Shown here piece after piece: positions 31,019 to 54,449 of a stretch of 64,000 nt of DNA. The position numbers and the translations under genes are program-made. Numbering within the stretch: position 1 is the first letter of the stretch; the number at the start of each line of letters is the position of its first letter. Source of the DNA: an uncultured Chthonomonadaceae bacterium (GTDB lineage: Bacteria > Armatimonadota > Chthonomonadetes > Chthonomonadales > Chthonomonadaceae); assembly GCA_963817895.1 (NCBI GenBank), contig CAWFQB010000005.1, positions 256,001 through 320,000 on the forward strand, given 5' to 3'. A model generated the notes under the pieces. The model was not told where the DNA came from, ran no database searches, and worked only from the letters and a program-made list of their open reading frames with translations.

Positions 31019-31031
31019 ATTTTTCTGCTGC

Positions 31032-31062
31032 TCTGTAACACTTTCGTGTCTTATTGGGAATA
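31032..31062 (+). promoter_or_regulatory. putative ECF-sigma promoter TCTGTAACA-N15-GGGAATA, copy 1
   Basis: Lies 66 bp upstream of the sigma ATG; identical boxes and spacing recur at 34279-34309; AAC in the -35 box is typical of ECF promoters. Confidence 0.7.
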
Positions 31063-31128
31063 CCATATCATGCAGGGAAGAAAGCCGCCACTAACCGGAC
31101 ACGAACCGCGCAGACAAGGAGAGCGCCG

Positions 31129-31738
31129 ATGCAGGCAGATTTATCGCAGATACAGTCGGACACGGCCTCGGCGAACGAAGTCATTCGGTCGTATCTGCAA
31201 GACAATTTAGAGATGCTGCTGCAAACCATGCGCGTCTTTGTCAAAAAGGCCAACCTTGCTGGCAGTCAGGGCATTGATTTCGCTTCTGAAGAGCTGCTTG
31301 GCATGGTGATGAACATTGCTCTGCAAAAAGCAGCCACTTTTGAAGTTAGTAAACCTCCGAAAGCCTGGATTTTAGGCATCGCCGCACATGTCGTCTTGCA
31401 GGAACAGCGGCGCGTTTTTGGCCGCAATCGGCGTGAAGTCAGCATTGATAACGAGTATACAGAAGAGTCTGCGCTGGATTGGTGGAGTGAACTGGCTATC
31501 CCTGGCCCGGAAGCCGAAGTTCTGGCGCGGCATAATGTGGCGTATCTGCTTTCATTGGTAGCAGATAAAGATCGTCCGCTCGTGGAGTTGATGATTGTAA
31601 AGGAGATGAATTCCGAAGTGGTCGCAGCCAAATTCGGCATCAAGCCGGGAACGGCGCAGCGTTCGCGTGTTTCGCGCGCTGGAGCGAGCGCGCAAAATTT
31701 TGGAACCGCAGCAGGCATTGGAGGGAAAGCAGCGATGA
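31129..31738 (+). CDS. ECF-type RNA polymerase sigma factor; 1-nt frameshift near 31658
   Basis: Region 2-like KAWILGIAAHVV; region 4-like LLSLVADKDRPLVEL...EVVAAKFGIKPGTA. The shifted frame continues VRVFRALERARKIL...KQR* with an ATGA overlap into the next gene. Confidence 0.78.
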
Positions 31739-32412
31739 ACGAAGAAAACCGGAGATCGCTCTCTGACAGCGAACTGGAGGCGTCGGAACGTCTGGCGCGC
31801 GAAAAACGGCTGTTCGCCTACCACTGCGCACTGGAAAACGGTGATTTTGAAACCGTGACCGCGATACTGGCGGAGGCGGAGCAGGATGCAACGCTGGAGC
31901 GAATGATTCTGGAAATCAACACCGCGCACATAGAGGAAATCCAGCAAACCACGCAAGCGCAGGAAGACACAGCTCTCATCGGCTTGCTGCAAAAACACTT
32001 TCCTAGCGCTTACATGGATGCGGGAGCCGACGCCGAGGACGAGATAGAACTGCCGCCCCTCACCATTGCGGACGTGCTGGCGCAGGTGCGTCCCGGTGAG
32101 GATTTAACGCAGGCGGCAGAGCGTAATGAACTGAACGCGCTTCGCAGCCGCGCGGCGGGATCGGAGCCGATCCCACAGGATTTGAGCGGGCGCGGCGTTC
32201 GGCAGTTCCTCGCAAGTCTGGGTATTACGATGAGTCGGCGAGTGGAAAACGCTTTTCGCAATACCGCCATTCTGCTGGCGCAGGGTCGGCAGCAGAACAT
32301 GGCGCAATTGGCCGCCACGCGCCGCCAGCGTTCCGCCTCCCAACATTCCACTTCCAGACCTCCGGTATCGGAACGTTCTGATTCTGACAAGGATTCTGTT
32401 TCGGAACAATAG
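31735..32412 (+). CDS. hypothetical soluble protein (225 aa); candidate anti-sigma factor
   Basis: ATG 31735 after GGAGGG, overlapping the sigma stop codon; helical and acidic, no transmembrane segment. Confidence 0.7.
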   Translation: MNEENRRSLSDSELEASERLAREKRLFAYHCALENGDFETVTAILAEAEQDATLERMILEINTAHIEEIQQTTQAQEDTALIGLLQKHFPSAYMDAGADAEDEIELPPLTIADVLAQVRPGEDLTQAAERNELNALRSRAAGSEPIPQDLSGRGVRQFLASLGITMSRRVENAFRNTAILLAQGRQQNMAQLAATRRQRSASQHSTSRPPVSERSDSDKDSVSEQ

Positions 32413-32423
32413 GATTTTCGCCC

Positions 32424-33152
32424 ATGACCACCGCCCTGTTCCCGAAGAACATTGACACCGTCATAGCCCACTTGTACACACAATCGGACGCCCCGTTGCC
32501 GACGCTTCAGCGTCCCATTGTGTCGCTATTTGATTTGACGCGCGCCTATAGTCTGGTCTGCCGGGAACTGCCTGGCCTGACCAGCCATATCGCGTCCGAA
32601 TTTCTCCTGCGGCGCAACGGACTTGTCTCGCCTTTGAAAGAAGCCAATCACATTCCGCTCGCCGGTTTTCTCTATGCCACAACCGATTTCGGTAGCATTT
32701 TCGTGGAAAAGAACGATCCCGTGGTACGGCGACGCTTTTCGGTTGCGCATGAAATCGGACACTATCTGCTGCATTTTCTGCCTCTACTGAAGGCATCGGC
32801 GAACGGAAGCGGAAGCGTTGCCGATTGGATTACGGATGCTTTTGTCGGCGTGGACAAAGAAGATGAGGCGCGTGCCACATCGAACGGGCATATTGCCGTA
32901 ACGCTGTCGGAAGGAGTTCCAATTCCACAGACGCCATTTGAGCAGATGGAGCAGGAGGCCAATGAGTTTGCCGCCCGCCTGCTAATGCCTGCCGATTTGG
33001 TCACGTCCCTGGCGACACAATACGGCGTCCGCTATCGTAATGAGGAGCTGTCTTGGCGGCTTGCCACGGAAATGCTGGTCAGCCATGCTGCCATGCAATG
33101 GCGGCTGCGTCATCTCAACATTTTTGCAAGTCTGAACGCCGACCGGAATTGA
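32424..33152 (+). CDS. ImmA/IrrE family Zn-metallopeptidase
   Basis: RRFSVAHEIGH (HExxH) and EQEANEFAARLLMP. Confidence 0.92.
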   Translation: MTTALFPKNIDTVIAHLYTQSDAPLPTLQRPIVSLFDLTRAYSLVCRELPGLTSHIASEFLLRRNGLVSPLKEANHIPLAGFLYATTDFGSIFVEKNDPVVRRRFSVAHEIGHYLLHFLPLLKASANGSGSVADWITDAFVGVDKEDEARATSNGHIAVTLSEGVPIPQTPFEQMEQEANEFAARLLMPADLVTSLATQYGVRYRNEELSWRLATEMLVSHAAMQWRLRHLNIFASLNADRN

Positions 33153-33193
33153 CAAGAGCGTCTATTTGCCCCAAATACCGCACGGAGAGCCGA

Positions 33194-34252
33194 ATGGGAC
33201 TGGAATTTTTACGAAACTACGGTGCGCAACGCGTCCAAAATTATCCCGGCTTGCCGACGATGATCGGCGATATGCAGGCCGCCAATGACGAGGACAAACA
33301 GCGCATTAACCTGGATTACGAAGTGGCGCGCGATCAGTGGCAGGCGCAAAACACGGCGGGTGTGGCGGCAGATACGACTGCTTTCACCGAGGGACCATGG
33401 TGTCCGCGATGCTTCATAGACGGTAAGGATGTGGGGCGCACAGTAGCCTGGCTGCGCAGTAAGGAGGGCTATCCTGTTCCCGTGCGCCTGGCGGAAATCG
33501 GCGCGCTGGCGATGCAAAACGAGAACGGCTGTCTGCGGCGCGATTTTCATTGCGTAGAGCGTGTCATTTCCATGATGGCGGATGCGTTTCCCTGGGAGGA
33601 TGTGGAAGCGTTCGCAATGGAATTGCAGGCCGCGGGGTTTCGGCTGCTGATATGTGGGGCACCTCCGAAGGATGCCAATCCCTACGATTTCGAGATTATG
33701 CGCCAGGCCACATACAGCCGTACTATGAGTGAGATGATCCGGCTGGAACGGGTAGCCCTCAACCAGTGCTGTAATGCGCCGACTGTAATTGATGGCCGAT
33801 TGGAAACGCGCGCCGGGGCATTCGCGCACCATCAGGATGCGGTTGTCGGATTGATAAAGACTCACTCGCGCAACTTTCTGCATACGCAGGGCTGGAACAC
33901 GCTTTATGATTTGACCCCTGGCCAGCGTACGCCTGTATTTCAGTTGGAAGATGATAGCGTCAGTGTGGTAACGTGGTATCTGCGCATAGACGGCGGGCGC
34001 AGCGACATGCCGAACTGGGGCATTGTGCGCGTAGAAGCGCCGCGCCTGTTGTTCGAGCAACAGATGGGGCAGGACTGGAACTATATCAATCAACTCTCGC
34101 GCCTGCTGTGCCGCTACCGTACGCGCGATGCCGGGTATGGGCGGTCCGCCGTTACTATTCACCCCATTCAGCGGGCCGAAGAAATGCTCGGTTCCCTTTT
34201 CACCAATGCGGACACATTAATCAGCCGCTTTTATCATCTCACGAATCTGTAA
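33194..34252 (+). CDS. nurA: NurA-like 5'-3' nuclease
   Basis: FIDG, VIDGRL, VVGLIKTH, LTPGQRTPVF, TWYLRI, GIVRVE and PIQRAE; adjacent to herA. Confidence 0.8.
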   Translation: MGLEFLRNYGAQRVQNYPGLPTMIGDMQAANDEDKQRINLDYEVARDQWQAQNTAGVAADTTAFTEGPWCPRCFIDGKDVGRTVAWLRSKEGYPVPVRLAEIGALAMQNENGCLRRDFHCVERVISMMADAFPWEDVEAFAMELQAAGFRLLICGAPPKDANPYDFEIMRQATYSRTMSEMIRLERVALNQCCNAPTVIDGRLETRAGAFAHHQDAVVGLIKTHSRNFLHTQGWNTLYDLTPGQRTPVFQLEDDSVSVVTWYLRIDGGRSDMPNWGIVRVEAPRLLFEQQMGQDWNYINQLSRLLCRYRTRDAGYGRSAVTIHPIQRAEEMLGSLFTNADTLISRFYHLTNL

Positions 34253-34278
34253 ACTGTTTGCTGCAATTTTGTCTCCGG

Positions 34279-34309
34279 TCTGTAACAAAAGCAGGAACTG
34301 AAGGGAATA
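34279..34309 (+). promoter_or_regulatory. putative ECF-sigma promoter TCTGTAACA-N15-GGGAATA, copy 2
   Basis: In the nurA-herA gap; exact match of both boxes and of spacer length to 31032-31062. Confidence 0.7.
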
Positions 34310-34402
34310 TCTCGCATCGGGCGCGGAATTTGCTGTTTGAAGCGAACGCTCCAAAATATCCTCGTCTTAACAAAAGCGCGAACAAGAAAGAAGCGGGTCA
34401 CT

Positions 34403-36319
34403 ATGGCAGAGATTTTGAATGCAGAGATTCTGGAAGCAATCGGAAATGGAACGGCTGTTGTGGAAACCAGCGCAGGCAGTCCGGCGTCAGCGGATTTCGC
34501 GACAGAGTTGAAATCGCGTGGGCCGGTGTCGCGGCCGGATGGGCGATTGTGCGTGGGGCGCGTAGGAGCGCCGCCAACACAGGAAGCCACCAGCGAAGAA
34601 TTTTGTTTCTGGGTTCCGCCGGATGCGTTGGTGGAAAAGTCGCAAATCGTGACGTGCATGAGCAGGGTTGCGGGGCAGAAGTACACGTACTATGCCATTG
34701 TGGATGAGGTGCATCGGTGCAGCCGCAAGCGCAGCATGGGACATGAGGTGGATGAGGCCGACAACGACCTGGATTACGAGCCGCCGTTTGAAAGCGAAGG
34801 TTACACGTATGCCACCGCCACTATCCTGCGCGTGGAGCCGATGGCGCTCACCCCGCCCCGCGAACGCAGCGACGTGATGATGGGCAATGAAGCGGATGTG
34901 GAAAAAGCCTACAGCGCGGATGAAATCGCTCCCGGCAGCCGCCTGGCCGTTGGACTGGTCAAAAATGGAGGCAATCGCATAGCGGGACCGGGCTATATAG
35001 ATACAGACTACCTGCTCGGTGCAAATGGGGGCCACCTCAACGTCAACGGCGCGGCGGGACGGGGAACCAAATCCAGTTTTCTATTGTGGATCAACTGGCT
35101 GCTTTTGGGAGAAGCGCGGCGGCAGGAGGCCGCAAACCCTACGCGCAAAAACCGGCTTCGCATCGTGCCCATCATTCTCAACGTCAAAAACTTCGACTTG
35201 TTCTACATTGATCGCCGCAGCGTGAAGTACGAACCGGACAAACATCTGCCGGACTGGCAGGCGATGGGGTATGATGACCCTCAACCGTTTACCGACGCGG
35301 TTTATTACGCCGCGCAGCAACGGGATACGAACCAGGCCGTTCCCACCGGGCGCGCGAGTGGGGTTATGCCTTACAGCTGGAGCCTCAAAGATGTTATCGT
35401 CGAAGGGCTGATGGAATACTTGTTCGCCGAAGCGGACGCGAACGATGTCAACTTCAGCGCCCTGATTCTGGACATTCAGGACTGGCTCACACGAACGCAA
35501 CCCCGTAATGCGGGCAGCGTTGCGTTTACCCTGCGTTCCGACGGACCTCAGACATTTCGCGCACTGCTGGATTGGGTAAACGCGCAGGCGGCAGCAAAGG
35601 ACGAGACTCGCGTTGTGAGTTCGCACCATACAGCAACGTGGAAGAAACTGGCGAGGCGTCTCATCAAATTGATCTATGAATGTCAGGGGGCGTTGCGCAC
35701 CGAAGACAACAATGGCAATCCGCTGGACGTGCGGCGAAGCGATACCAGCGCCCCCATTGTGGTAGACCTGGCCGCGCTTGCTGGCGAGTCTATGATGCAG
35801 CGTTTTGTCGTGGCGACAATCTTCAAGCAACTTGTCGCCGAGCGCACGGGCGCGAAAGCCATCGGGGGCTTGATCTACCTGGTGACGCTGGATGAACTCA
35901 ACCGCTTTGCGCCGAAAGGCGCGAAAGACCCCATTACACAGTTGATTGAAAAAGTGGCGGCGGAAATGCGTTCTCAGGGCGTAATATTGCTGGGTGCGCA
36001 GCAGCAGGCTTCACGAGTCAGTGAGCGCGTCATTGAAAATGCGGGCATACGGGTGCTTGGCAAAACCGGCGTCATTGAACTTGCTGCAACCGCATGGCGC
36101 GGCCTGTCCGACAGCGCCCGGAGCAAGGCGGATCGCCTGCCGCCGGATGAAAAATTGATTTTACAGGACAATTTTCGTGAGCCGATGCACGTCAAAGTTC
36201 CGTTTCCCGTCTGGGCTATGAATCCGCAGGAGGCGCTTTCCGCCCCGCCCTCCTCCCTGTCCACACCCGGCGCATCGTCAGTAGAGACGGACGATCTGGA
36301 CGGCCTGCTAGCGGATTGA
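34403..36319 (+). CDS. herA: HerA/FtsK-superfamily ATPase with an N-terminal HAS-barrel-like domain
   Basis: Variant Walker A GHLNVNGAAGRGTKSS; Walker B VTLDELNRFAP; MRSQGVILLGAQQQAS. Confidence 0.85.
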   Translation: MAEILNAEILEAIGNGTAVVETSAGSPASADFATELKSRGPVSRPDGRLCVGRVGAPPTQEATSEEFCFWVPPDALVEKSQIVTCMSRVAGQKYTYYAIVDEVHRCSRKRSMGHEVDEADNDLDYEPPFESEGYTYATATILRVEPMALTPPRERSDVMMGNEADVEKAYSADEIAPGSRLAVGLVKNGGNRIAGPGYIDTDYLLGANGGHLNVNGAAGRGTKSSFLLWINWLLLGEARRQEAANPTRKNRLRIVPIILNVKNFDLFYIDRRSVKYEPDKHLPDWQAMGYDDPQPFTDAVYYAAQQRDTNQAVPTGRASGVMPYSWSLKDVIVEGLMEYLFAEADANDVNFSALILDIQDWLTRTQPRNAGSVAFTLRSDGPQTFRALLDWVNAQAAAKDETRVVSSHHTATWKKLARRLIKLIYECQGALRTEDNNGNPLDVRRSDTSAPIVVDLAALAGESMMQRFVVATIFKQLVAERTGAKAIGGLIYLVTLDELNRFAPKGAKDPITQLIEKVAAEMRSQGVILLGAQQQASRVSERVIENAGIRVLGKTGVIELAATAWRGLSDSARSKADRLPPDEKLILQDNFREPMHVKVPFPVWAMNPQEALSAPPSSLSTPGASSVETDDLDGLLAD

Positions 36320-36332
36320 AAGGAAAACGCTG

Positions 36333-37667
36333 TTGAAACTGCTGCATACCGGCGACTGGCATATCAATGCCCGCCTGGGAAATCGCTCCCGATCGGAGGA
36401 AATTTTTACGGCGATGGGGGAAATCGCCGACTTGCTGGAAACGCACAGGGTTGACGTGATGATTGTGGCAGGCGACCTGTTTCGGGACCCGCACATGGAT
36501 AAACGGGAAACCGGCGAAGTCGTCGGTCGTATCAAATCCTTGTTTGGACGATTTCTGGAGCGCGGCGGAACTATTGTCGCCATCACGGGCAACCACGATA
36601 GCGAAATCGCCTGCCGGACATTGCGTGACACGCTCGCCCTTGCGCCCGCAAAGCCGACCCCACTTACCAGCATCCTGCCATCAGGCAGGCTATATATCGA
36701 AACCGAACCCAAGCGTATTCGCCTTGCCGATTCGGAGGGCGGAATTGTGCAATTTATCCTGATGCCGTATCCGAATTCTATGTATTTACGCGGCGAAACC
36801 ACACACGCGGTGGGCAATGCCGCGCGCAACCGCGCCATTTATGAGAAATATCAGCAGGCGGTCACGCGCCTGACCGAGACGCCCGCTTTTGACGACACGT
36901 TACCCGCCGTGTTCGTCAGTCACATTCATGTGCGGGGCGTCAATGCCAATGCCCGTACCGCCTACGAGGTGAGCGAAGCCGAAGACGTTATCTTTGAACC
37001 GGGCGATATTCCCACACACTTCACATACGTGGCTTACGGACATATTCACGACGCCCGACAAAAGCCCACAGCCAATGCAGAGCATGTTCGCTATTGCGGC
37101 AGCATCGTGGCTTTGGACGCGGGTGAGCGCGACGATGTGAAAAGCGTCGTCGTGTTCGACATTACGGGCGGCAAAGCCGTTAACATCAAGGAAATTCCGC
37201 TTTCCGCGCCCAAATTCATTCATGAGATCACGCTCAACGCGGAAACAAGGGATCATGAACGCCTGGCGGAACTGTTCCCTCACATCGCGCCCGACCGCGA
37301 TCTGGTCAAGTACAATGTGGTTTATACGCCGGGCGTACATAACCTTGCAGACATCGAGCGCGCCGTTCAGGATACGTTTCCCGGCTGGTATGCGCGCAAG
37401 TTGGCTCCTTCCCAGGAGGCCATAACAATATCAACTCCGCTGCCGCCCCGTCGCAATGTAGAAGCAAACATCCGCGAGTATATCACGGCGCATTACGACG
37501 CAGGCATTACAAACGAGAAGAACGAGGTTAAACGTCTTGCCGCCGAGGCCGAGCGTGATGCGCTTTTGGAGTTGGCGATGGAGTTGTGGCATGAATGCAG
37601 CGCCGAAGCGGTAGTCTGCGGGGTAGAAACGGCAATCGGGGAAACGGCAAGAGAGGTGGCGCAATGA
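36333..37667 (+). CDS. sbcD: Mre11/SbcD metallophosphoesterase nuclease
   Basis: LLHTGDWH; VAGDLF; GNHD; YVAYGHIH; YCGS. Confidence 0.93.
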   Translation: MKLLHTGDWHINARLGNRSRSEEIFTAMGEIADLLETHRVDVMIVAGDLFRDPHMDKRETGEVVGRIKSLFGRFLERGGTIVAITGNHDSEIACRTLRDTLALAPAKPTPLTSILPSGRLYIETEPKRIRLADSEGGIVQFILMPYPNSMYLRGETTHAVGNAARNRAIYEKYQQAVTRLTETPAFDDTLPAVFVSHIHVRGVNANARTAYEVSEAEDVIFEPGDIPTHFTYVAYGHIHDARQKPTANAEHVRYCGSIVALDAGERDDVKSVVVFDITGGKAVNIKEIPLSAPKFIHEITLNAETRDHERLAELFPHIAPDRDLVKYNVVYTPGVHNLADIERAVQDTFPGWYARKLAPSQEAITISTPLPPRRNVEANIREYITAHYDAGITNEKNEVKRLAAEAERDALLELAMELWHECSAEAVVCGVETAIGETAREVAQ

Positions 37668-40525
37668 TTCCAACTCGTATTCGGCTTCAAGGGTTTCTCA
37701 GCTATGGCAGCAACGCGCAGACGCTGGAATTCGGCGATTCGCCGATGTGGCTGCTTGCCGGCCCTAACGGCGCGGGCAAATCTTCGGTTTTCGACGCCAT
37801 TCAGTTCGCCCTGTATGGCTCCCACCGGGACGGCAAAACAGGCTTCGACAATCTGATTCATAAAGGGCAGGATCGGTTCGAAATTGAGGTTGAATTCATC
37901 GCCAATGACCGAACGTTTTGCGTAAGGCGTTCGCGCGACAACCGAGACAACCAAACCTGTGAAGTATTCGAGGTGACAGGCGAGGGCCCGAACCGCAGCC
38001 TGAAAGCCCTTCCCGAAGTGGGCCGCGCCACGCTGACGCAATGGGTGCAGTCCACGCTGGGCATGACCGAAGAGACGTTTGCCGCCTCTACGCTGCTCAA
38101 ACAGGGTGGCAGCGACGCGCTGATCGAGGCCGATAAAAACGAGCGATTCAAGATGTTGAGCGAACTGGTGAATTTGTCGGATTACGACCGGCTGTACAGC
38201 AAGGCAGACGCGCTGCACAAACACTGGAAGGGAAGGCAGGAAAGCGCGAAACGGCGCATGGACGCGATTTTCGCGAACGGAGATAGCGGGTTGAAGGACG
38301 CGCGGCAGGAAAGCGCGGCGCAGGAGCGGCAGGCGCAAAAACAGCAGCGTATTCTGGATGCCTCCAAACGGCTGTTAAGTCGTCTGGGCGCGCGCAAAGT
38401 CCATGCGCAGAATCTGGTCAAACTCGTCCGCGAGGAGCAGGAACTGCAAACAGCCATCAAGGAAGCCGCGCCCACTCTACAACAGGAAGCGCAGATTCAG
38501 GCAGACTCGGCGCGTTGGAATGGCCTGCGAACCGCGCTGCCCATCCTGCGAGAACTGCGCAGTGGACTGGAAGCGCGGGCGCGCTGCGAAGCCGACCTTG
38601 CCGCCAATGCGCCCAACCAGGATTCCTGGCAGACAGGGCTTGCCAGCCACTACCACTTGCCGGAGGAAACGGACGGACTGCTGACCATACTGCTTACAGC
38701 AGTAGAAGCGGAGGAATCCGCGCTGACCGCCACGCAAACCGCCCTGCCCTGGCTGCGGATGTTCGCGGAAGCGCGCGCGGAAGGGCAACTGGCGAAGCAG
38801 GTGCATGATCTGCAAAACGCTCGTTCCAGACAGATCAGCCGCATTAGAACCCTTGTGGAAGCGAAACTACAGGGCGCGGATCAGGCGAAAACCGATGCTG
38901 AACGACTGGCGCAGGAACAGCGCGACGCCTGGCGGAACGCGCAAATGCAGGTAAAAACGGCGCAGGAACGCGCCCATCAAATGGACGCGCTCGACGGTTC
39001 ACCGGCCTGCGACATCTGCGGACAGGAACTATCCCCCCTTCATCTGGCTACAGAGCGCGAACGCCGAACAAGCGCGCAGCAGATGGCGGAAGCGGCATTG
39101 CTGGAAGCGGAGTGCGCGTATCGCGCCGCTCAGGAAGCGCAGCAGCAGGCGCAGACACGCTGCCGTCTCTGGCAGGGGCGGCAGCAAATGCTCGATACAA
39201 AGTCCGGTCAGTTGGAAGCAGACAAGCGCGCTACTAACAGCGATTACAAACATGCCCGCGCCAACGCGCAAAACGCGCTGAATGCCCTCGCCGGTCTCAG
39301 CGATAACTACGCGGCGGCGATTGGAATTGCCGCGCAAGCTGTTCTCGACAACAGCCTGGAATGGCTGGACTCTACCTATCCCACCGATAAGGATTGCGCC
39401 CACTTGCTGCGGCAGTGCGCCCGGCTGCCGCAAACCCGAACCATTCTGGAAGCGGTACGCGGCCTGTCACAAAGTGACAGCAAAATCAACCAGAATCTGT
39501 GTCTGCTTACAGACGAGTGGCGGCAGGAAGTGATGGAACTGGACGCAAACCGCCTGAAAACCAGGATCATCGGGTGGGACAGGGAAACAGCGGAACTTGC
39601 GGGCGCGGATACCCGGTTGGCGTTGCTGACTACAGCGAAAGATAAGCAGGTGGCCCGCCAGTTGCGTCTTGAGCGTATCGGCGTGGATAGACAGGAGATT
39701 CTTTATCAGGCCGAATGTGACGCGGACGCGCTCGATCTTGAAAGCATTGAATGTCGGATGCGTTACGCTGATGCCCGACAGATTCAGGCGCAAACGACGC
39801 GCGAAAACGCGCTGAAGCGGCAGCAAACGCTGGAGGAGAACAGCCTCGCGTACTGCCGGGAGCGCGAGGATTGGAAATCCGCCGAATTAAAGGCCGCGCG
39901 CCACAAGAAACTGGCCGAACTGATCGGGCCTGTCGGCCTACAGCGCGAACTGCTGTGGGAAGCGGAAAGAGGCATTCTGGCCCATGCCAACGAAACTCTG
40001 GAAACGCTTTCCGACGGACAACTCCGTCTGCAACTGCGCAGCGAGATGAACGAGCAAACCGCGTCGGATGGCGTGAAGTTCAAAAAAATCGCCAAATCTC
40101 GCTTGAAGGAAGCCTTCGACGTGGTGTGCTGCAACAGTGAAATTGGCGGGCATGGCATCGGACTGGCGTTTCTGAGCGGCAGCCAGAAGTTTCGCGTTGC
40201 CGTCAGTTTGGCTCTGGGCATAGGGCAGTATTTTGGGCGTGAGGGACAGGGAGCGCAAGCGGTTATCATTGACGAGGGGTTTGGCAGCCTGGACAAGCAG
40301 AACCGGGACGTGATGATTGCCGAACTTCAAAAACTAAGCGGCAAACTCAAGCGCATCATTGTTGTCTCACACCAGGAGGAGTTTCGAGACGCCTTCGAAT
40401 ATCGCTACGACATTCGCCTGGATAAGCATAATCACGCCTCTATAACCCAAATGGTGACGCCGCTGCATCCGGCGGTGGACGAAAGCGATACAAACGCGAT
40501 GGCAGAAAATGAGCGCAAAATTTAA
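37664..40525 (+). CDS. sbcC: Rad50/SbcC SMC-like ATPase
   Basis: GPNGAGKS; coiled coil with CDICG zinc hook; LSGSQ; IIDEGFGSLD; VVSH. ATGA overlap with sbcD. Confidence 0.93.
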   Translation: MIPTRIRLQGFLSYGSNAQTLEFGDSPMWLLAGPNGAGKSSVFDAIQFALYGSHRDGKTGFDNLIHKGQDRFEIEVEFIANDRTFCVRRSRDNRDNQTCEVFEVTGEGPNRSLKALPEVGRATLTQWVQSTLGMTEETFAASTLLKQGGSDALIEADKNERFKMLSELVNLSDYDRLYSKADALHKHWKGRQESAKRRMDAIFANGDSGLKDARQESAAQERQAQKQQRILDASKRLLSRLGARKVHAQNLVKLVREEQELQTAIKEAAPTLQQEAQIQADSARWNGLRTALPILRELRSGLEARARCEADLAANAPNQDSWQTGLASHYHLPEETDGLLTILLTAVEAEESALTATQTALPWLRMFAEARAEGQLAKQVHDLQNARSRQISRIRTLVEAKLQGADQAKTDAERLAQEQRDAWRNAQMQVKTAQERAHQMDALDGSPACDICGQELSPLHLATERERRTSAQQMAEAALLEAECAYRAAQEAQQQAQTRCRLWQGRQQMLDTKSGQLEADKRATNSDYKHARANAQNALNALAGLSDNYAAAIGIAAQAVLDNSLEWLDSTYPTDKDCAHLLRQCARLPQTRTILEAVRGLSQSDSKINQNLCLLTDEWRQEVMELDANRLKTRIIGWDRETAELAGADTRLALLTTAKDKQVARQLRLERIGVDRQEILYQAECDADALDLESIECRMRYADARQIQAQTTRENALKRQQTLEENSLAYCREREDWKSAELKAARHKKLAELIGPVGLQRELLWEAERGILAHANETLETLSDGQLRLQLRSEMNEQTASDGVKFKKIAKSRLKEAFDVVCCNSEIGGHGIGLAFLSGSQKFRVAVSLALGIGQYFGREGQGAQAVIIDEGFGSLDKQNRDVMIAELQKLSGKLKRIIVVSHQEEFRDAFEYRYDIRLDKHNHASITQMVTPLHPAVDESDTNAMAENERKI

Positions 40526-45563: not shown

Positions 45564-45921
45564 GGATAAGTTGGAAAGCGCGCGCCGCGAATCGGGCGCG
45601 GCGTTCCTCACAGGCAGAACGGCAGCCAATTCGGTTGCGGTGCAGATGTCGCGAACAGCGCGTCCTTTGCCTCCCCAGTTCAGGCAAATGTAACACCTGT
45701 GTTGACGGAAAAGGTTCTAACACCACATACGCGCTGCACCGCGAAAACGTTGCTTGCTACGCCGAGAGTTCCTATCTGGTGGTTATTGACGTTGCCTGAA
45801 CAGTGTTCAAAGGAGGAATTCCGGTTTCTGCGGTGAATTGATAGTGCGAAACTGTGCGCAGTTTCGCTGGTCGCATTCTGCTGTGGCCTCGGCGACACCA
45901 AGCAAAGGAATGAACCTGACC

Positions 45922-48900
45922 ATGCCCAAAATTTTCGATAACATTGACCTTCCCCTGCTGCCTGCCCTGCAAGACACCCTCGCCGTTTCTGAGCGCGCCG
46001 ATTTTTGCGTGGGCTATTTTAACCTGCGCGGCTGGAAGCGGCTGGACGGCTATCGTGGAAGAGTGGGCGGGTGGGGAGGGGCATTGCTGCCGCCTGCTGG
46101 TGGGGATGCAGCGCGCTCCCGACGACGAATTGAAAGCGGCTGATGTCCATCGATGGAAGCCGATGGCGACATGGACAACCAGACCGCCATTCGGATGAAA
46201 CGGAAGCTGGCCGAAGATTTCAGAACGCAGTTGACGGTCGGCGTTCCTACCAATGAAGATGAAGCGGGGCTAAGGCGGCTGGCGGCGCAGATCAAGGCGA
46301 AAAAGGTCGTGGTCAAGCTGTATCTGCGCCATACGCTTCATGCCAAACTCTACCTGATGCACCGCCCTGCGGATCCCGTCAACCCTATCATTGGCTACCT
46401 GGGCAGCAGCAACCTGACGCTTTCCGGCTTGCAGCATCAGGGCGAATTGAATGTGGACGTGCTGGACCACGACGCCGCGCACAAAACTGGCGAAATGGTT
46501 TGGGGAGCGTTGGGAAGACCGCTGGTGTCTGGACATTTCCAATGAACTGGTGCAGGTGATTGAGGAATCGTGGGCGCGGGAAATTCCCATTCCCCCTACC
46601 ATATCTACGTGAAAATGGCTTACCATCTGTCGCAGGAGGCGCGGGCGGGGCTGGCGGAGTTTTCCATTCCCAAAATCTTCGGCAACAAACTTTTCGATTA
46701 CCAGGCGGCGGCGGTGAAGATCGCCGCCCGGCATTTGAACAAGCGGGGCGGCGTCCTGATCGGCGATGTGGTGGGATTGGGCAAAACGCTGATGGCGACC
46801 GCGCTCGCCCGGATGATGGAAGAGCAGGGCATGGAAACGCTGATCCTCTGCCCCAAAAACCTGGTGGCGATGTGGGAGGACTACCGCACGAAGTATCGAC
46901 TGCGGCGCTCAAAGTGCTGTCGGTAACGCAGGCGGTCAAAGCGGCTGCCCGCCGACTGCGCCAAGCCCCTGCCGTCGTTATCGCCTTGTCTTGATTGACG
47001 AAAGCCATAACCTGCGCAACCGGGAAGGCAAGACGTACCGGGCGATTCGGGAGTACATCGAGCGCAACGAAAGCAAAGTGATTCTGCTGACGGCCACGCC
47101 GTACAATAAAACCTATCTCGATCTGTCCAACCAACTGCGCCTGTTCGTGCCGGAAGAGCGCGACCTGGGCATCCGCCCGGAAGCCCTGCTGCGGCAAATG
47201 GGCGAAGTGGAGTTCGTCACGGCGGCATCAGGCGGGCATCCGGACACTGGCCGCCTTCGAGAAGAGCGACTATCCCGACGATTGGCGCGAGCTGATGCGG
47301 CTGTACATGGTGCGCCGAACCCGCTCGTTTATCATGGACAATTACGCCCGAACGGATCTGGCGACACAGCGCAAGTACCTGCTGTTCGACAATGGCGAAC
47401 GCTCTTATTTCCCCGACCGCGCGCCCCGAACCGTGCAAGTTCGCCCTGGACGCGCAATACGAGGCGTTGTACGCGCAGGAGGTTGTGGATACCATCAACG
47501 GCCTGTGCCTGCCCCGCTATGGATTGGGCAATTACGACAACATTCCAAGCCGGACAAGCCGCCCACAGCCGGCGGAGACGGCCGCGCTGAAAGATCTGTC
47601 GCGGGCGGGCAAGCGGTTGATGGGGTTTTGCCGCACCAACCTGTTCAAGCGGCTGGAATCGAGCGGGTACGCCTTTCTGCTGTCCGTCGAGCGGCATATT
47701 CTGCGCAACTATATTTTCCTGCATGCCATCGAGAACAACCTGCCGCTGCCCATCGGGACGCAGGGGGCCGACCTGCTGGATACGGACATGAGCGACGACG
47801 ACGCGGAGGACACGGCGACGGGCGAAGGGATGTTTGCCTCAGAAGAGGACGACGAGGCGGCGGAGACAGGCGACGGAAATTAAAACGCAGGCATTGCGGA
47901 CCGAATGAGGATTTCCGCAAGCGAGCGGCGCAGGTGTATGCGCTGTATGCGGGGGCCGTACAAAAAACGGTTCAAGTGGCTGTCCTCGCGCCTGTTCCAA
48001 AAACAACTGGCGGACGATCTGCAAGTCGGACGGCGCCGCGCTGATACAGATTTTGGGCAAATGCGCGCAGTGGGACGCCAACCAGGACGCTAAAATGCTG
48101 GCGCTGCGGCAACTGCTCGCCAAAGATCGGCCCAACGACAAAGTGCTGGTGTTCACGCAGTTTGCGGACACGGCGCAGTATCTGTACAAAGAGATGGCAA
48201 GCGCGGGGAATTCGAGCATGTTGCCGTGGCAACGGGCGGAAGCGCGGACCCCACGGAACTGGCGTGGCGGTTCAGCCCGCGCAGCAACGGCAAAATGGCG
48301 GGAAGCGAAGGCGGCGGGGGAACTGCGCGTCTTGATCGCCACCGATGTTCTGTCGGAAGGCCAGAACTTGCAGGATGCGTTTGTGGTCGTCAATTACGAT
48401 CTGCCCTGGGCGATCATCCGCCTGATACAGCGCGCGGGCCGCGTGGATCGTATCGGGCAGAAGGCGGAAGAGATTTTGTGCTACTCGTTCCTGCCGGCAA
48501 AGGGCGTGGAAAAGATCATCAAACTGCGCAGCCGCGTTCGGCAGCGGCTGGCCGAAAACGCCGAAGTGGTCGGCACGGACGAGGCGTTTTTTGAGGACGA
48601 CAAAAGGGGGCGCAAAATCCTCGATCTGTACCATGAAAAGGCGGGCGTTCTGGACGGGGATGAGGACGGCGAAGTGGATCTGGCGTCGAAAGCGTTCCAG
48701 ATCTGGAAGAACGCGATCGAAGCCGATCCCGGCCTGCAAAAGACGATCACGGGGATGCCGCGATGTGGTGTATTCCGCCAAAGCGCACACGCCAACACTG
48801 CGGACAGCCGGAAGGCGCGCTGGTGTTTCTGCGGACGGGCGAAGGGAACGACGCGCTGGCGTGGATTGACAAGGAACGGCGAGAGCGTCACCGAGTCGCA

Positions 48901-49340
48901 GTACGCGATTTTGCGGGCCGCCGAGTGCGTCGCCCGATACGCCTGCCGTGCCGCGCCTGAAAACGCACCATGAACTGGTGGCGAAGGGCGTGGAGCATAT
49001 CGTGCGCGAGGAGCGTAATGTGGGCGGGCAGCTGGGCCGTCCGTCCGGGGCGCGTTTCAAGACCTATGAGCGCCTGAAACGTTATGCGTACGCAGGTACG
49101 CGGACGGCCTGTTCGACTACGCCGGAACTGCACCGGGCCATCGAGGAGATTTACAAGTACCCCCTGACCCAAACGGCCACGGACCGCATCAACAGCCATC
49201 TGCGCACCGATGTGACCGACGACATGCTGGCGCAACTGGTCATTCTGCTGCGGGACGAAAACCGGCTGTGCGTGATCACGGAAGAGCAAAGAGCGGAAGA
49301 GCCGCGCATCATCTGTTCCCTCGGATTGGTAAATCAATAG
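45922..49340 (+). pseudogene. PLD-nuclease/SNF2-like helicase fusion; many frameshifts (real decay or sequence errors)
   Basis: Fragments in successive frames: [23 protein letters not shown] (PLD), DVVGLGKT, IDESHN, LLTATP, VFTQFADT, SEGQNLQ, QRAGRVDRIG. Confidence 0.85.
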
Positions 49341-49356
49341 ATGGGATTTCGCGTAC

Positions 49357-49854
49357 ATGGATTTAGCGCAACAAAAAGAAAAGTTCAGTGATGCCTATCT
49401 ACAGGCTGTTGCCGCCGTTGCAGGCTACGGCCTTGCCAAGCCTAATCCCGATACAGACAGCGTGGATTGGGTTATTTCGGCGAGGGGAGTGGGTGACACG
49501 CTTCGCCGTCCGCGTTTGGAAGTGCAGTTAAAATGCACCGCTCAGAATATTGTTCGGGAAACTCATCTTCATTTTCCACTGGAAATCAAGAACTACAACG
49601 ATCTGCGACATCCGAACCCGCTCACGCCCTGTATTTTGATTGTAGTGACAGTTCCCGACAACATTGAAGAATGGATTGCTCACTCCGAGGCGGAACTTTC
49701 TCTACGGCGTTGCGGCTATTGGGTATCCTTATGCGGCGAAGCGGAAGTTTCCAACAACTCGAAAGTGACTGTTCGCGTGCCGCGTATCCAGATGTTCACG
49801 CCGCAGGCATTGCAAGCCATGATGCGGCGTATCAACAGCGAGGGAAGATTATGA
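49357..49854 (+). CDS. DUF4365-like PD-(D/E)xK nuclease-fold protein
   Basis: QQKEKFS.AY; PDTDSVD; LEVQLKCT; YNDLR; YWVSL. Confidence 0.8.
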   Translation: MDLAQQKEKFSDAYLQAVAAVAGYGLAKPNPDTDSVDWVISARGVGDTLRRPRLEVQLKCTAQNIVRETHLHFPLEIKNYNDLRHPNPLTPCILIVVTVPDNIEEWIAHSEAELSLRRCGYWVSLCGEAEVSNNSKVTVRVPRIQMFTPQALQAMMRRINSEGRL

Positions 49855-51041
49855 TCGCTTCCATAAATGACGCAGCAACCCTGCGTGAAATCAGACCGAA
49901 CGAAATGGCTGCTTACCTACACAGTCATGCCTGGAAACAGGTGGAACAGATTGGCGACCGCGCTACTGTCTGGACGGCAAGCGCGAATGGGAGCGGCGAT
50001 TATGAAATTTTGCTTCCCTCGGATGTCACGTTGAACGAGTACGCCCGCCGCATGTCCGAAGCCCTGCATACGCTGGAAGTCGCCGAACACCGTTCCCAAC
50101 TTAACATTGCGCGCGATATTGCGGCAATCACATCGGACGTGCTGCGCGTTCGGCTGGCACATGGGCTGATAGAAAATGGCACATTGCCTCTGGAACTTGG
50201 CGTTGCGATGGTGGAAGGGGCGCGCGATCTGGCGCTGGCTGCGGCCTGCGCTGCGGCGCGTCCACGCGCTTTGTACACGGCGCGCAAACCTCAGGAAGCA
50301 ATCAACTATATGGACGGCCTGCGCATGGCGCAAACGGAGGAGGGCAGCTTCGTTCTTAACATCCAATCGCGCGTTCCCCCGCGCTTGCAGACCCATTTGT
50401 TCGAGGACGCGCCCGCGCTGTGGGAAGAACCTTTTGAGCGGCGCGCGTTGTTGACGCTGACCGGCGCGCTCACGGCAGTACGTCGGGCTGTCACTGCTGC
50501 CGCGTCGTCAGGGGATTTTCAGCCGTTTCAGGATGCCGTTCGTTCCGGCGTGAGCGCCAATTTATGTGACGCGCTGGTAGGGTTGAGCATGGACAATACG
50601 GCAGAAGAGGTGTCCCTGAAAATCAGTTGGTCGCCGACGCGAACGGTGGCGGACAAGACGCCGACGGAGTTTCAGTTCCGGCGCGATACATTCCCCCTGT
50701 TGCGCGAAGCATCGCGTATGCTTCGCGAGTCGGCTCCCATGGAAGATATGTCCATTCTCGGCACTGTAACTGCCCTGCGTCGCGAAGACAATGCAGACAC
50801 GGGAAAGATCACGCTTTCGGCATGGGTAGAGAATTCATGGCGGCAAGTTCGCATGGATTTATCTGATGACGATTATCGCAAGGCCCTGCAAGCGCATGAT
50901 GAACGCGATTTTGTGCAGTGCGTAGGTGAGCTGACAAAGGAGAACCGCAGGTACTTTTTGCGCAATGTGCGTGATTTTACCCTGATGAAATACTTTGCGG
51001 GCGAGGATATAGACGAAGCTGATCCGTTTGCCGATGAATAA
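49851..51041 (+). CDS. hypothetical protein (396 aa), translationally coupled to the DUF4365 gene
   Basis: ATGA overlap; intact ORF; motifs QTEEGSFV and GVSANLCDAL. Confidence 0.8.
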   Translation: MIASINDAATLREIRPNEMAAYLHSHAWKQVEQIGDRATVWTASANGSGDYEILLPSDVTLNEYARRMSEALHTLEVAEHRSQLNIARDIAAITSDVLRVRLAHGLIENGTLPLELGVAMVEGARDLALAAACAAARPRALYTARKPQEAINYMDGLRMAQTEEGSFVLNIQSRVPPRLQTHLFEDAPALWEEPFERRALLTLTGALTAVRRAVTAAASSGDFQPFQDAVRSGVSANLCDALVGLSMDNTAEEVSLKISWSPTRTVADKTPTEFQFRRDTFPLLREASRMLRESAPMEDMSILGTVTALRREDNADTGKITLSAWVENSWRQVRMDLSDDDYRKALQAHDERDFVQCVGELTKENRRYFLRNVRDFTLMKYFAGEDIDEADPFADE

Positions 51042-51070
51042 ATTTTATCCGAGTTGAGGGCTAATTGAGC

Positions 51071-54000
51071 ATGAACATTACCAAAGTACGCGATTATTTG
51101 CAGGCGTTTGATTTCAAGCTGCTGTTTTTAAATGAAATCGGTTGGGATCAACGCAAACAGAGTCTTTCCGTTGAAGCGGGCAAGCAAACGTTTATGCTCG
51201 AAGCCGTTGCCGAAAAGAAGGGCATGGTGGCCTTTGTCTGCGCGCCCGGATAAGGACGGCTTTATTCCGCTTCAGGCCACGCGGCGCAAAATCGAGCATC
51301 TGGTCGCGCAAAGCGTCCGCGAGCATATCATCATCTACACGGACGCGAAACAGTCGGCGCAGGTGTGGCAGTGGGTGCGCCGTGAAAAGGGCAAGCCCGT
51401 CGTGGCGCGGGAAATGCCGTTTTACGCCGGGACAGTTCGGGCGATCTGCTGATCCAGAAATTGCGGGCATCACAGTGGAGATGGAGGACGAGGACGAGCT
51501 GACGCTGGTCGTTCAGACCGGGCGCGTGCGGCAGGCGTTCGATGTCGAGGGCGTAACGCAAACGGTTTTATGACCGCTTCAAGACGGAACACGCCCGCTT
51601 CCTGACGGCCATTGCAGCCCGACCTCCCTGCCGGATGCCGACCGGACATGGTACACGTCGGTGATGCTGAACCGCCTGATGTTCCTGTACTTCATTCAGA
51701 AAAAGGGCTTTCTGGCGGGCGATGACAAACTATCTGCGGAACCGCCTCAAAACGGTACAGGCGCAGCACGGCAGCGACAAGTTCTTCACCTTTTATCGCC
51801 ATTTCCTGATGCGCCTGTTTCATGAGGGATTGGGCCAGCCGACGCACAGCCCGGAACTGAGTGCGCTGATCGGCAAGGTTCCCTACCTGAACGGCGGCCT
51901 GTTCGCCGAACACGCTATCGAGCGCAAATGCCGCGAGCAGAACATCGAAATTCAGATTGAGGATGCCGCCTTCGAGCGCGTGTTCGACGTTCTTCGATGA
52001 CTTCGACTGGCATCTGGACAATCGCCCCAACAAGGCGGGCAACGAGATCAACCCGGACGTGCTGGGCTATATCTTTGAGAAGTACATCAACTACAACGAG
52101 GCGGGGCAGAAAGAGAACGGCGCGTACTACACCAAAGAGGACATCACCGAGTACATTTCGCGCAGCACGATTCTGCCATATCTGCTGGACACGGCGCGGG
52201 ACAAGTGCCGTGTCGCATTTGAGGACGAGGGTTCGGTCTGGCGGTTGCTGCGCGACAACCCGGACAAATATATTTTCGCGGCTGTCAAGCACGGCATGGA
52301 CAACTGCCGCTTCCGCCCGAAATCGAGGCCGGAATCGCGGACGTGAGCAAGCGCGACGGCTGGAACAAACCCGCGCCGAGCGGCGAAGACGCCATCGCCC
52401 TGCCGACGGAAATCTGGCGCGAAGTCGTGGCGCGGCGGCAGCGGTGTGAGGAACTGCGAAAGAAACTGGCGGCCGGGGGAGATGGAATCGGTCAACGACC
52501 TGATTACCTACAATCTCGACATACGGCAGTTCGTGGCGGATATCATCGCCGGAGTACGAGGGCGCAGATTTGATACAGGCGCTGTGGCGGGCCATCAAAA
52601 ACGTCCGCGTTCTCGATCCGACGGTGGGCAGCGGCGCGTTTTTGTTCGCCGCGCTCAACATTCTGGAACCCCTGTACGAGCAGTGCCTGGAACGCATGGA
52701 AACGTTTGTAGGGGATGTAGATCGCGCCGGGGGCGCGCAACATGGACACCGAAACACCGGGCGTTTCGGGAGGAACTGGCGCACGTCAACGCGCCCGAAC
52801 ATCCGAACCGCGCCTATTTCATCTTCAAATCCATCATCGTCAACAACCTTTTCGGCGTGGACATCATGGAGGAGGCGACGGAAATCTGCAAGCTGCGCCT
52901 GTTCCTGAAACTGGTCGCGCAGGTGGAACCGGATATGTCGAAAGCCAACATGGGCGTGGAACCCCTGCCCGATGTAGATTTCAACGTTCGGGCTGGTAAT
53001 ACTCTCGTTGGCTATGTCAACAAGGAGGATATGGATCGCCTGTGGGCTGCGACAGGCCAACTACCCTACGACCGCGACCCCGAACTCAAGCAAAAGGTAC
53101 GCGAGTACAGCCTGCTGCTGGCCGATTTTCGTAAACAGCAATTGGGCCTGCCAACCCCCAAATCGGTTACGAAAGAGCAGGTAGAACGCGCCGCCCGCAT
53201 TATCCGCGAGGGTGAATACTCGAACCGACCGGGCAACGCGAAGACCAATCCGAGCCTGAACAACGACCTGTGGAACCTGTACAAGACATCAGGCAAACTC
53301 GCAATGAACGTGCCGCAGGACAAATTCAACGACACGCATACGCCCCTGCACTGGTTCGTAGAATTTCCCGAAGTCATGGCCGCAGGCGGCTTCGACGTAA
53401 TCATCGGCAACCCGCCCTACGTCGAGTACAGCAAAGTACGGAACGACTATACCATTTTAGGCTTTCAGTCTCTTGATTCCGGCAATTTGTATGCGTATGT
53501 TATCGAAAAATGCTTAAAGGTACAAAAAATCGGAGGGCGAATTGGAATGATTATCCAACTATCCGCATTTTGCACCCCTCGCATGATCTCATTTCAAGAT
53601 GTTTGGTTTGCTCAGGTTCAAACCTCACACTTGTCATTTTTTGATGATCGTCCCGGTAAACTCTTCGATGGGCTTGAACATATTCGCGTTGCCATCACAA
53701 TTGGACAACGGGGAAGCAAAAGCGATTTTGTCGCAACTACACAGTACACCAAGTTTGCGACAGAGGCTCGTCCAACATTATTCGACTCCTTGCACCTGCA
53801 ACATAATCTCTATCCCCGGCATGGAAGCAGCGTTCTGAAAGTGTCCGCAAAAGAAGAAAATAGCATAATCCGCAAGATGTGGGGAGTTGGGGCAACGTTG
53901 TCAAATTACCTTCAAGAAGGCGAGAACGACAATTTTGTATACTATGGATACGGCTATGGCTACTGGGGCAAAATTCTCAACTACAAGTCGTATTTCAAGG

Positions 54001-54449
54001 GAGAAAAAGTGTCTGTCTCAACGGGAGATAAGTACATCTATGGCAAACCCGACGTAGACAGGGATGTGATTGCGGCTGTCATGAACTCCTCGTTGTTCTA
54101 CTGGTTTTAAATCAATTATAGTGATGGACACAACTTCACGAAGCACGTCATTGGTTCAATGCCGTTTGTGTACCCAAACGAAGACGTGCTGTGTCAGTTA
54201 AAGTCCGTCTGTTCGTTGTTGATGAGTGACCTCCAAAAGAACGCCCGTCGTAAAACTGCCAACTATAAGGCAACGGGACAAGTCATCTATGATGAGTTCG
54301 TACCTAAGCATAGTAAATCGATCATTGACAAGATAGACCGGGTGCTGGCGAAGCATTACGGGTTTACGGACGCGGAACTCGATTTCATCCTGAATTACGA
54401 CATCAAGTATCGCATGGGGCGTGGGGGCGAGGACGGGGCGGACGGGTGA
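51071..54449 (+). pseudogene. Eco57I-like (type IIG-related) N6-adenine DNA methyltransferase; frameshifted, with an in-frame TAA at 54108-54110
   Basis: PYLNGGLF; INPDVLGYIFEKYIN; GAYYT; motif I VLDPTVGSGAFL; motif IV FDVIIGNPPY; C-terminal LAKHYGFTDAELDFILNYDIKYRMG. Confidence 0.87.

Follow-up and report, generated by a model that had tools for sequence, protein, structure and literature searches.

The window analysed here is a stretch of 64,000 nucleotides from an uncultured Chthonomonadaceae bacterium of the Armatimonadota (assembly GCA_963817895.1, contig CAWFQB010000005.1, positions 256,001 to 320,000). It carries a run of seven genes for a sigma factor of the extracytoplasmic function (ECF) type, a small protein called orf2 here, an M78 metallopeptidase, NurA, HerA, SbcD and SbcC, with one putative promoter ahead of the run (P1) and a second one inside it (P2, Table 1). 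Both lie within a bipartite motif that the initial annotation had singled out at 31032-31062 and 34279-34309 on the plus strand. Its letters, coordinates and strand, the intergenic setting (gaps 31019-31128 and 34253-34402) and the two 15-nt spacers, which differ without relation in sequence, were all re-read exactly as first described. From comparison with related loci, the two sites are very probably the cognate promoters of the neighbouring ECF sigma factor, as had been proposed. This assignment is based on the de novo recovery of the motif at orthologous loci, on its position specificity and on its co-variation with the recognition helix of the sigma factor.

Table 1. Promoter and gene features of the seven-gene cassette, in window coordinates
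Feature	Position	Strand	Remarks
Predicted promoter P1	31034..31062	+	-35 TGTAAC 31034-31039, 18-nt spacer, -10 GAATA 31058-31062; matrix score 19.9
ECF sigma gene	31129..31738	+	sigma2 and sigma4 only; one extra base at 31657-31660
orf2	31735..32412	+	225 aa, all-helical, start overlaps sigma stop; predicted cytoplasmic anti-sigma
M78 zinc metallopeptidase (ImmA/IrrE/CapP family)	32424..33152	+	intact HEXXH...E, acidic insert, ends without GAF
NurA-like nuclease	33194..34252	+	best solved match 7f6d_H NurA
Predicted promoter P2	34281..34309	+	-35 TGTAAC 34281-34286, 18-nt spacer, -10 GAATA 34305-34309; matrix score 21.9
HerA ATPase, Deinococcus type	34403..36319	+	7f6d_B, E 3e-39
SbcD/Mre11 nuclease	36333..37667	+	TIGR00619 above cut-off
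SbcC/Rad50 ATPase	37664..40525	+	last of the seven genes

Repeated motif and probable promoter recognition

With up to three mismatches allowed, the two motif copies are the sole matches in the window (shuffles give a mean of 0.15, and 1 of 100 reached two). The exact motif is found at these two places only in the 7.48-Mb assembly, where two further sites carry two mismatches at spacer 15. This uniqueness test is post hoc. As a look-elsewhere control, identical 9+7 pairs with an unrelated gap of 12-20 nt were counted; with overlaps included, the window contains 35 of them, and 15 hexamer shuffles contain 1-29. The control tells against the repeat as evidence in itself, and the identity of the two copies alone is not beyond chance. 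The motif is established because it is conserved in orthologous loci, not by the identity of its two copies.

Orthologous loci were collected with a NurA alignment, which yielded 18 genome and 80 metagenome loci (the latter being the best 80 of 127), among them loci of Chloroflexota, Armatimonadota, Abditibacteriota, Blastocatellia and one Pseudomonadota. A first locus search with the M78 protein as query returned no loci. Motif discovery on orthologous loci, which had been suggested as a check, recovers the motif upstream of the sigma genes: in a Gibbs search of 36 dereplicated sigma-upstream regions, with the window excluded, CTGTAAC..GAATAT is the best of 12 runs and the spacer is 18 in 31 of the 36 regions. 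The conserved boxes in the relatives are TGTAAC and GAATA, 18 nt apart, and their consensus TGT(A/C)A(C/T/G)-N18-(G/C)AAT(A/T) mostly has a distance of 45-60 nt to the start codon that follows. Local to the window are the TC at the front and the GG preceding GAATA. The -10 box GGGAATA of the initial annotation is therefore rejected, because its two upstream G's are unconserved, and conservation points to TGTAAC-N18-GAATA instead. The numbering of E. coli sigmaE places the C of the -35 box at -31 and the G of GAATA at -12, and we infer from it transcription starts near A31070 for P1 and near 34316-34317 for P2. On the minus strand, a match of sigma70 type overlaps P1; it was rejected as within chance (5 found, 4.0 expected).

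A scoring matrix was built without the window from 29 of the 36 regions, seven being dropped for another spacer or a low score. In a scan of 20 kb, the two window sites rank first and the next site scores 10.5; P2 is the top-scoring site of the whole genome. Leave-one-out scores of at least 10 are reached before 31 of 41 sigma genes, compared to 10 of 820 shuffles. The corresponding counts for the other genes are 1/41 for orf2, 1/34 for M78, 1/41 for nurA, 3/38 for herA, 2/34 for sbcD and 0/33 for sbcC.

The 39 intact sigma homologues contain sigma2 and sigma4 only and are about 200 aa long, with r4_2 matched in 39 and r2 in 35. Their solved-structure matches are mostly ECF sigmas, the best being ShbA. 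The window sigma, as a protein truncated by a frameshift, scores 21.7 with NCBIfam ShbA, where the cut-off is 209. Of 41 representatives, five were dropped for weak promoter calls, and co-variation was analysed for the remaining 36, whose calls had been made with the -31 base left unscored. All 24 sigmas with an Arg in the sigma4 helix (24 of 24) have promoters that end the -35 box in C, and a residue other than Arg is accompanied by a base other than C in 12 of 12. An unbiased column scan ranks this position top for the last -35 base, and the rule holds for all six loci outside the training set, of which L121 is a weak call. By residue spacing, the position corresponds to Arg171 of E. coli sigmaE, which, in the relevant passages of PMC1540707, contacts the G opposite C-31. 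Mutants with Tyr at this position gave G, according to passages of 10.1101/2020.06.23.168245. The same combination of Tyr with G is found in L087, L098 and one of the two L155 sites.

Several points weigh against the assignment as cognate promoter. No site of at least 10 lies inside 200 nt of 10 of the 41 sigma genes. Related loci do not count as independent cases: on the NurA tree, three coincident changes are seen, with two or three independent pairs, which is not significant. The promoter call of L101 is ambiguous, and the alternative Gibbs site would give 35/36. The Ser172-equivalent co-varies with -33 (25/25 vs 3/11), which differs from the -34 link in the published passages. In the window sigma itself, the extra base falls on the codon of the -31-reading residue, which makes that residue unreadable, and the gene may truly be dead.

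The extra base makes the assembly read through from the sigma gene into orf2. Such a fusion is found in 1 of 75 loci, the window, and in none of the other 74 with both genes; a programmed sigma-orf2 fusion was rejected because it is seen in the window only. In this assembly, 28 of 123 orthologs from a same-genus genome (about 23%) are frameshifted, corresponding to about one event per 4 kb, so that broken genes here are likely assembly errors. A first small ortholog sample had 0 of 9 frameshifted. Ten split sigma-family hits in the genome are out of frame. A Logan contig, in which orf2 is called as a separate protein of 225 aa, lends weak support, since the contig shows differences of its own and may fail to cover the break. 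Judged from these counts, the sigma frameshift is most likely an assembly error.

Second copies of the predicted promoter and the reach of the sigma factor

The motif had also been taken to tie the sigma factor to herA-sbcD-sbcC. This link is supported, with the restriction that the herA copy is confined to a minority of loci. P2-like sites scoring above 10 are present in 6 of 89 herA-upstream rows (window, L012, L022, L015, and L021 with its duplicate L054), and P2 as a general feature is rejected on this count. The gap between nurA and herA has a median of 15 nt and is at most 40 nt in 74 of 89 cases; it measures 150 nt in the window. Since nurA and herA usually abut, most loci would run through from the first promoter. 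A terminator was looked for between nurA and herA, and none was found. For the five two-site loci, the own pairing of variants is the best of 120 permutations, and a sixth locus has a 17-nt spacer in both of its copies. In Abditibacteriaceae, herA-sbcD stands apart from the sigma operon, which is intact (488 kb away in G305). Both genomes with a detached herA, G305 and G091 of one genus, have the top-scoring site of the fetched stretch directly before herA, in the local variant TGTCAC-N18-GAAA. In two of two genomes where the cassette sigma was not found, the site before herA is degenerate. The second copies thus match the local variant, and detached herA genes keep the site. Additional promoter copies stand before sbcD rather than herA at L079:12833 and L102:3931.

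As a search motif for a whole regulon, the motif fared differently: it is real and conserved, but the regulon appears to be the cassette alone. The suggested genome scan for further targets gives 140, 31 and 8 sites at scores of 13, 15 and 18, compared to 108-132, 28-38 and 1-8 for ten shifted spacers. In five other hosts the pattern is hit 44 times and the controls 30 times, with no wider regulon. A genome-wide regulon is rejected because the site counts match the controls, and for the same reason the action of the sigma factor appears to be local, directed at its own cassette. This is similar to the small local regulons of ECF sigmas in passages of 10.1101/2020.06.23.168245. The bipartite motif before the sigma gene itself, with AAC in the -35 box, resembles autoregulatory ECF promoters; that ECF sigmas usually autoregulate had been stated in the initial annotation, and passages of the same paper confirm such promoters as routine.

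Variations in promoter arrangement were seen at a few loci. A small gene lies between promoter copy and sigma gene at L012:639-938, L156:12861-13211 and L117 (the same as locus L019), as an optional first operon gene; it is annotated DUF4258 in L156 and has 25% identity to the L012 gene. Tandem promoter copies precede the Aulosira sigma gene (L155:13139 and 13234), and a divergent copy lies next to the sigma promoter at L007:7776 on the minus strand.

orf2 and the M78 protease

The structure model of orf2 (predicted local distance difference test, pLDDT, 86) is all-helical, with helices at residues 11-35, 38-50 and 52-88. We found no Pfam, solved-sequence or clear fold match (best fold Z 5.8, with the C-terminal half barely tested) and no solved anti-sigma among the fold matches; this lack of matches does not show a new fold. 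The predicted complex of window orf2 with the sigma factor of locus L023 reaches a score of 0.73, compared to 0.01 for the best control. Between runs at least 64% of contacts agree, and the partner pLDDT is at least 64. Residues 16-70 of orf2 are modelled over sigma2 and the sigma4 recognition helix. The score mark applied is reached by 116 of 157 solved pairs and 2 of 215 mismatched ones, and holds only roughly with the alignments used here. On the strength of this model, we regard orf2 as a likely anti-sigma factor. Two points argue for caution: the modelled sigma is that of another locus, and the score may reflect likeness to solved sigma/anti-sigma complexes. A helix at orf2 residues 174-197 (window about 32254-32325), FRxTAIxL...QLAATRR, is conserved in 38 of 38 homologues and is a candidate dimer or cleavage element.

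The protease belongs to the M78 family with a Pfam score above cut-off. H109, E110 and H113 are invariant and E178 is conserved to at least 90% in 28 sequences, and its best solved matches are CapP and IrrE. An invariant Arg is found seven residues before HEXXH, which is the spacing of CapP R90. In passages of 10.64898/2026.05.16.725639, R90 contacts single-stranded DNA, and the CapP GAF domain (residues 182-288) is part of the single-stranded DNA groove. The M78 proteins of the cassette end shortly past the region aligned to peptidase and linker and contain no C-terminal GAF. Cleavage of orf2 would follow from the M78 family precedent (10.1101/2022.04.27.489752) and from fusions of orf2 with M78 in one open reading frame (L098:1400-2743, L099:8444-9835 and L121). 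We lean slightly towards a protease that releases the sigma factor after DNA damage. What speaks against it is that the trigger is uncertain, because the protease is without the GAF domain of the CapP/IrrE single-stranded DNA groove.

A GAAW-N4-GTTC box is located 15-16 nt before the -35 box in 11 of 36 promoters (L008, L029, L033, L034, L043, L051, L058, L072, L075, L079 and L081), all in one clade whose titled members are Chloroflexota. The background rate is 135 of 14982 windows. The same box form occurs twice before lexA in three of three such hosts (leaders L148-L150), and it resembles the LexA box GAAC-N4-GTTC given in passages of PMC3323433. This suggests SOS gating over the sigma switch in that clade. 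The box is absent from the window and from the lexA leader of this genome, which counts against the same layer of control here. Paper searches found no description of a Chloroflexota LexA box.

Spread, proposed circuit and alternatives

Among loci with enough sequence on the relevant side, sigma, orf2 and M78 stand ahead of nurA in 65 of 68, and herA, sbcD and sbcC follow nurA in 47 of 51 (neither set dereplicated). Within the phylum the cassette is patchy: orf2 is present in 10 of 401 genomes, and of 61 close genomes 2 match herA strongly. Eight of the nine other orf2 genomes have sigma, M78 and nurA alongside; the ninth has a broken copy on a short contig. The entire cassette is carried on two plasmids, of the cyanobacterium Aulosira laxa NIES-50 and of Ca. 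Chlorohelix allophototropha (Chloroflexota). Phage records searched with NurA gave no match. Pfam NurA is above threshold in 19 of 50 homologues and not in the window's own NurA-like protein. The best solved match of NurA and HerA, 7f6d, we take to be the D. radiodurans NurA-HerA complex. In 12 of 27 locus groups, the cassette is immediately followed, on its own strand, by known defence genes (54 of 67 listed open reading frames scanned): Wadjet (6), Cas3g (2), prokaryotic Argonaute (pAgo), a PglX piece, a type IIG restriction-modification system and a Mokosh-like helicase.

We hold the following circuit, taken as a whole, to be a good explanation with considerable confidence. The ECF sigma factor would read P1, from which the whole seven-gene cassette would be transcribed, and P2 would add transcription of herA-sbcD-sbcC. 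Soluble orf2 would hold the sigma factor inactive until the M78 protease cuts it upon DNA damage or entry of foreign DNA. The freed sigma factor would raise its own synthesis and induce NurA-HerA and SbcD-SbcC, and this machine would degrade or resect DNA ends.

The cassette probably serves accessory genome protection rather than core repair. Defence is modestly favoured, by somewhat better than even odds, because defence genes lie directly downstream; that this count has no background control weakens the point. The strongest alternative accepts the cognate promoter and sees in the cassette an inducible double-strand-break repair module, a bacterial counterpart of the herA-mre11-rad50-nurA operon known from archaea. 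There, enzymes of these four families resect ends for recombination, and NurA-HerA resects ends in Deinococcus (PMC9960219). The closest solved relatives of the window proteins are the Deinococcus-type NurA and HerA, and the LexA-type box of one clade would also fit. Compared to the archaeal and Deinococcus systems, the cassette is bacterial, patchy and twice plasmid-borne, with its own sigma-based regulator. The patchy spread, the plasmids, the Wadjet, Cas3g, pAgo or restriction-modification genes often found downstream and a second, distant sbcD/sbcC pair in the host all speak against a repair module, which we consider possible at roughly one chance in three.

Next to the anti-sigma assignment, orf2 might be a DNA-binding repressor of the CapH/ImmR/DdrO type that is cut by the protease, with the motif as its operator. 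Known M78 regulators cut helix-turn-helix (HTH) repressors, orf2-M78 fusions occur, and an Atlas row at 0.88, to be read as a lead only, has HTH_31 in 31% of its members. No HTH family is found in 38 orf2 homologues, however, the motif is non-palindromic with -35/-10 geometry and co-varies with the sigma factor, and orf2 is modelled onto the DNA-reading faces of sigma. A repressor is thus improbable. It is still less probable that another host-encoded ECF sigma with a similar -35 preference reads the sites. The genome has 66 sigma-family matches, ECF120 (TGTAACAAA) and ECF231 (TGTAACCTT) have the same -35 box, and ShbA, with a similar sigma4 helix and an AAC-type -35 box, uses the promoter CGTAAC-N16-CGATGA (PMC12019637). 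The -10 boxes in these passages differ from GAATA, being TCGTCAT for ECF120, GTTTCCAC for ECF231 and CGATGA for ShbA (PMC7826278, PMC12019637). In different phyla the motif also goes along with the cassette, and it varies as the helix of the cassette sigma varies; there is no genome-wide excess of sites. Lastly, identical 9+7 pairs are frequent in the window and its shuffles, but a chance match without function is barely credible, given that the motif is conserved, keeps its position and spacer, co-varies with the sigma and persists ahead of herA genes that are detached.

Among known systems, CapP/CapH, IrrE(PprI)/DdrO and ImmA/ImmR share with the proposed circuit an HEXXH M78 protease beside a small partner and an operon that is either DNA-related or devoted to defence. 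Substrates of the CapP/CapH type are HTH repressors, whereas the partner here matches no HTH family and takes the part of an anti-sigma in the model; the output would thus be activation by sigma, unlike in CapP/CapH. CapP and IrrE have a GAF domain that the cassette protease lacks, and the cargo here is NurA-HerA-SbcD-SbcC. The CalpL-CalpT-CalpS system of type III CRISPR likewise combines a protease, a soluble anti-sigma and an ECF-like sigma, within a single immune cascade (10.1101/2024.05.08.593097). CalpL is a SAVED-Lon protease activated by cyclic tetraadenylate (cA4); the cassette protease is M78 without a SAVED or Lon match, and the promoter is defined here. In Myxococcus xanthus, the ECF sigma DdvS drives a defence island from several promoters of its own, and the anti-sigma domain of DdvA binds sigma2 and sigma4 (passages of PMC11506125). 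According to these passages, DdvA sits in the membrane and carries its TPR-CHAT sensor in the periplasm, in contrast to the small, soluble orf2 with a separately encoded cytoplasmic protease.

Among the entries of the ECF classification that were covered, term searches returned no group with this gene context. Paper searches, which left most subscription journals outside, found neither a pairing of M78 protease and anti-sigma nor a description of this cassette. The nearest printed hint is that 24 capH/capP loci of cyclic oligonucleotide-based antiphage signalling systems (CBASS) include a sigma70-family gene (passages of 10.1101/2022.04.27.489752). M78 sensors are known to cut repressors, and the cassette circuit is a variant of known regulatory designs that we did not find in print. 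Tentatively, at a little under even odds, we put forward a new damage-sensing circuit: a protease of the CapP/IrrE family would destroy a soluble anti-sigma in place of a repressor and so turn on a private sigma, with no targets beyond a mobile NurA-HerA-SbcD-SbcC nuclease machine and the defence system trailing it, be it Wadjet, Cas3g, pAgo or restriction-modification. Single-stranded DNA made by this machine might in turn act back on the protease. If this is true, M78 damage sensors would extend from repressor cleavage to sigma release, and the bacterial NurA-HerA-SbcCD unit would be inducible accessory protection. The cassette family would also supply naturally orthogonal pairs of sigma and promoter, set apart by a single residue and a single base. 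A guessed triad of sigma, anti-sigma and protease becomes a testable circuit with a promoter, predicted starts, a one-residue rule and cultured plasmid hosts.

Further genes are found around the cassette. In the window, a PLD plus SNF2 helicase gene, split over several frames, and a methylase of the Eco57I type occupy 45838-54107, 5 kb from the cassette, and probably form a restriction-modification locus. In L023, L024, L073 and L084, the sigma gene is repeatedly preceded at short distance by DUF6884, TGT-like and QueC genes, a set that suggests a 7-deazaguanine DNA-modification system. In L021 (4956-7827), a second herA-family gene lies directly upstream of the cassette.

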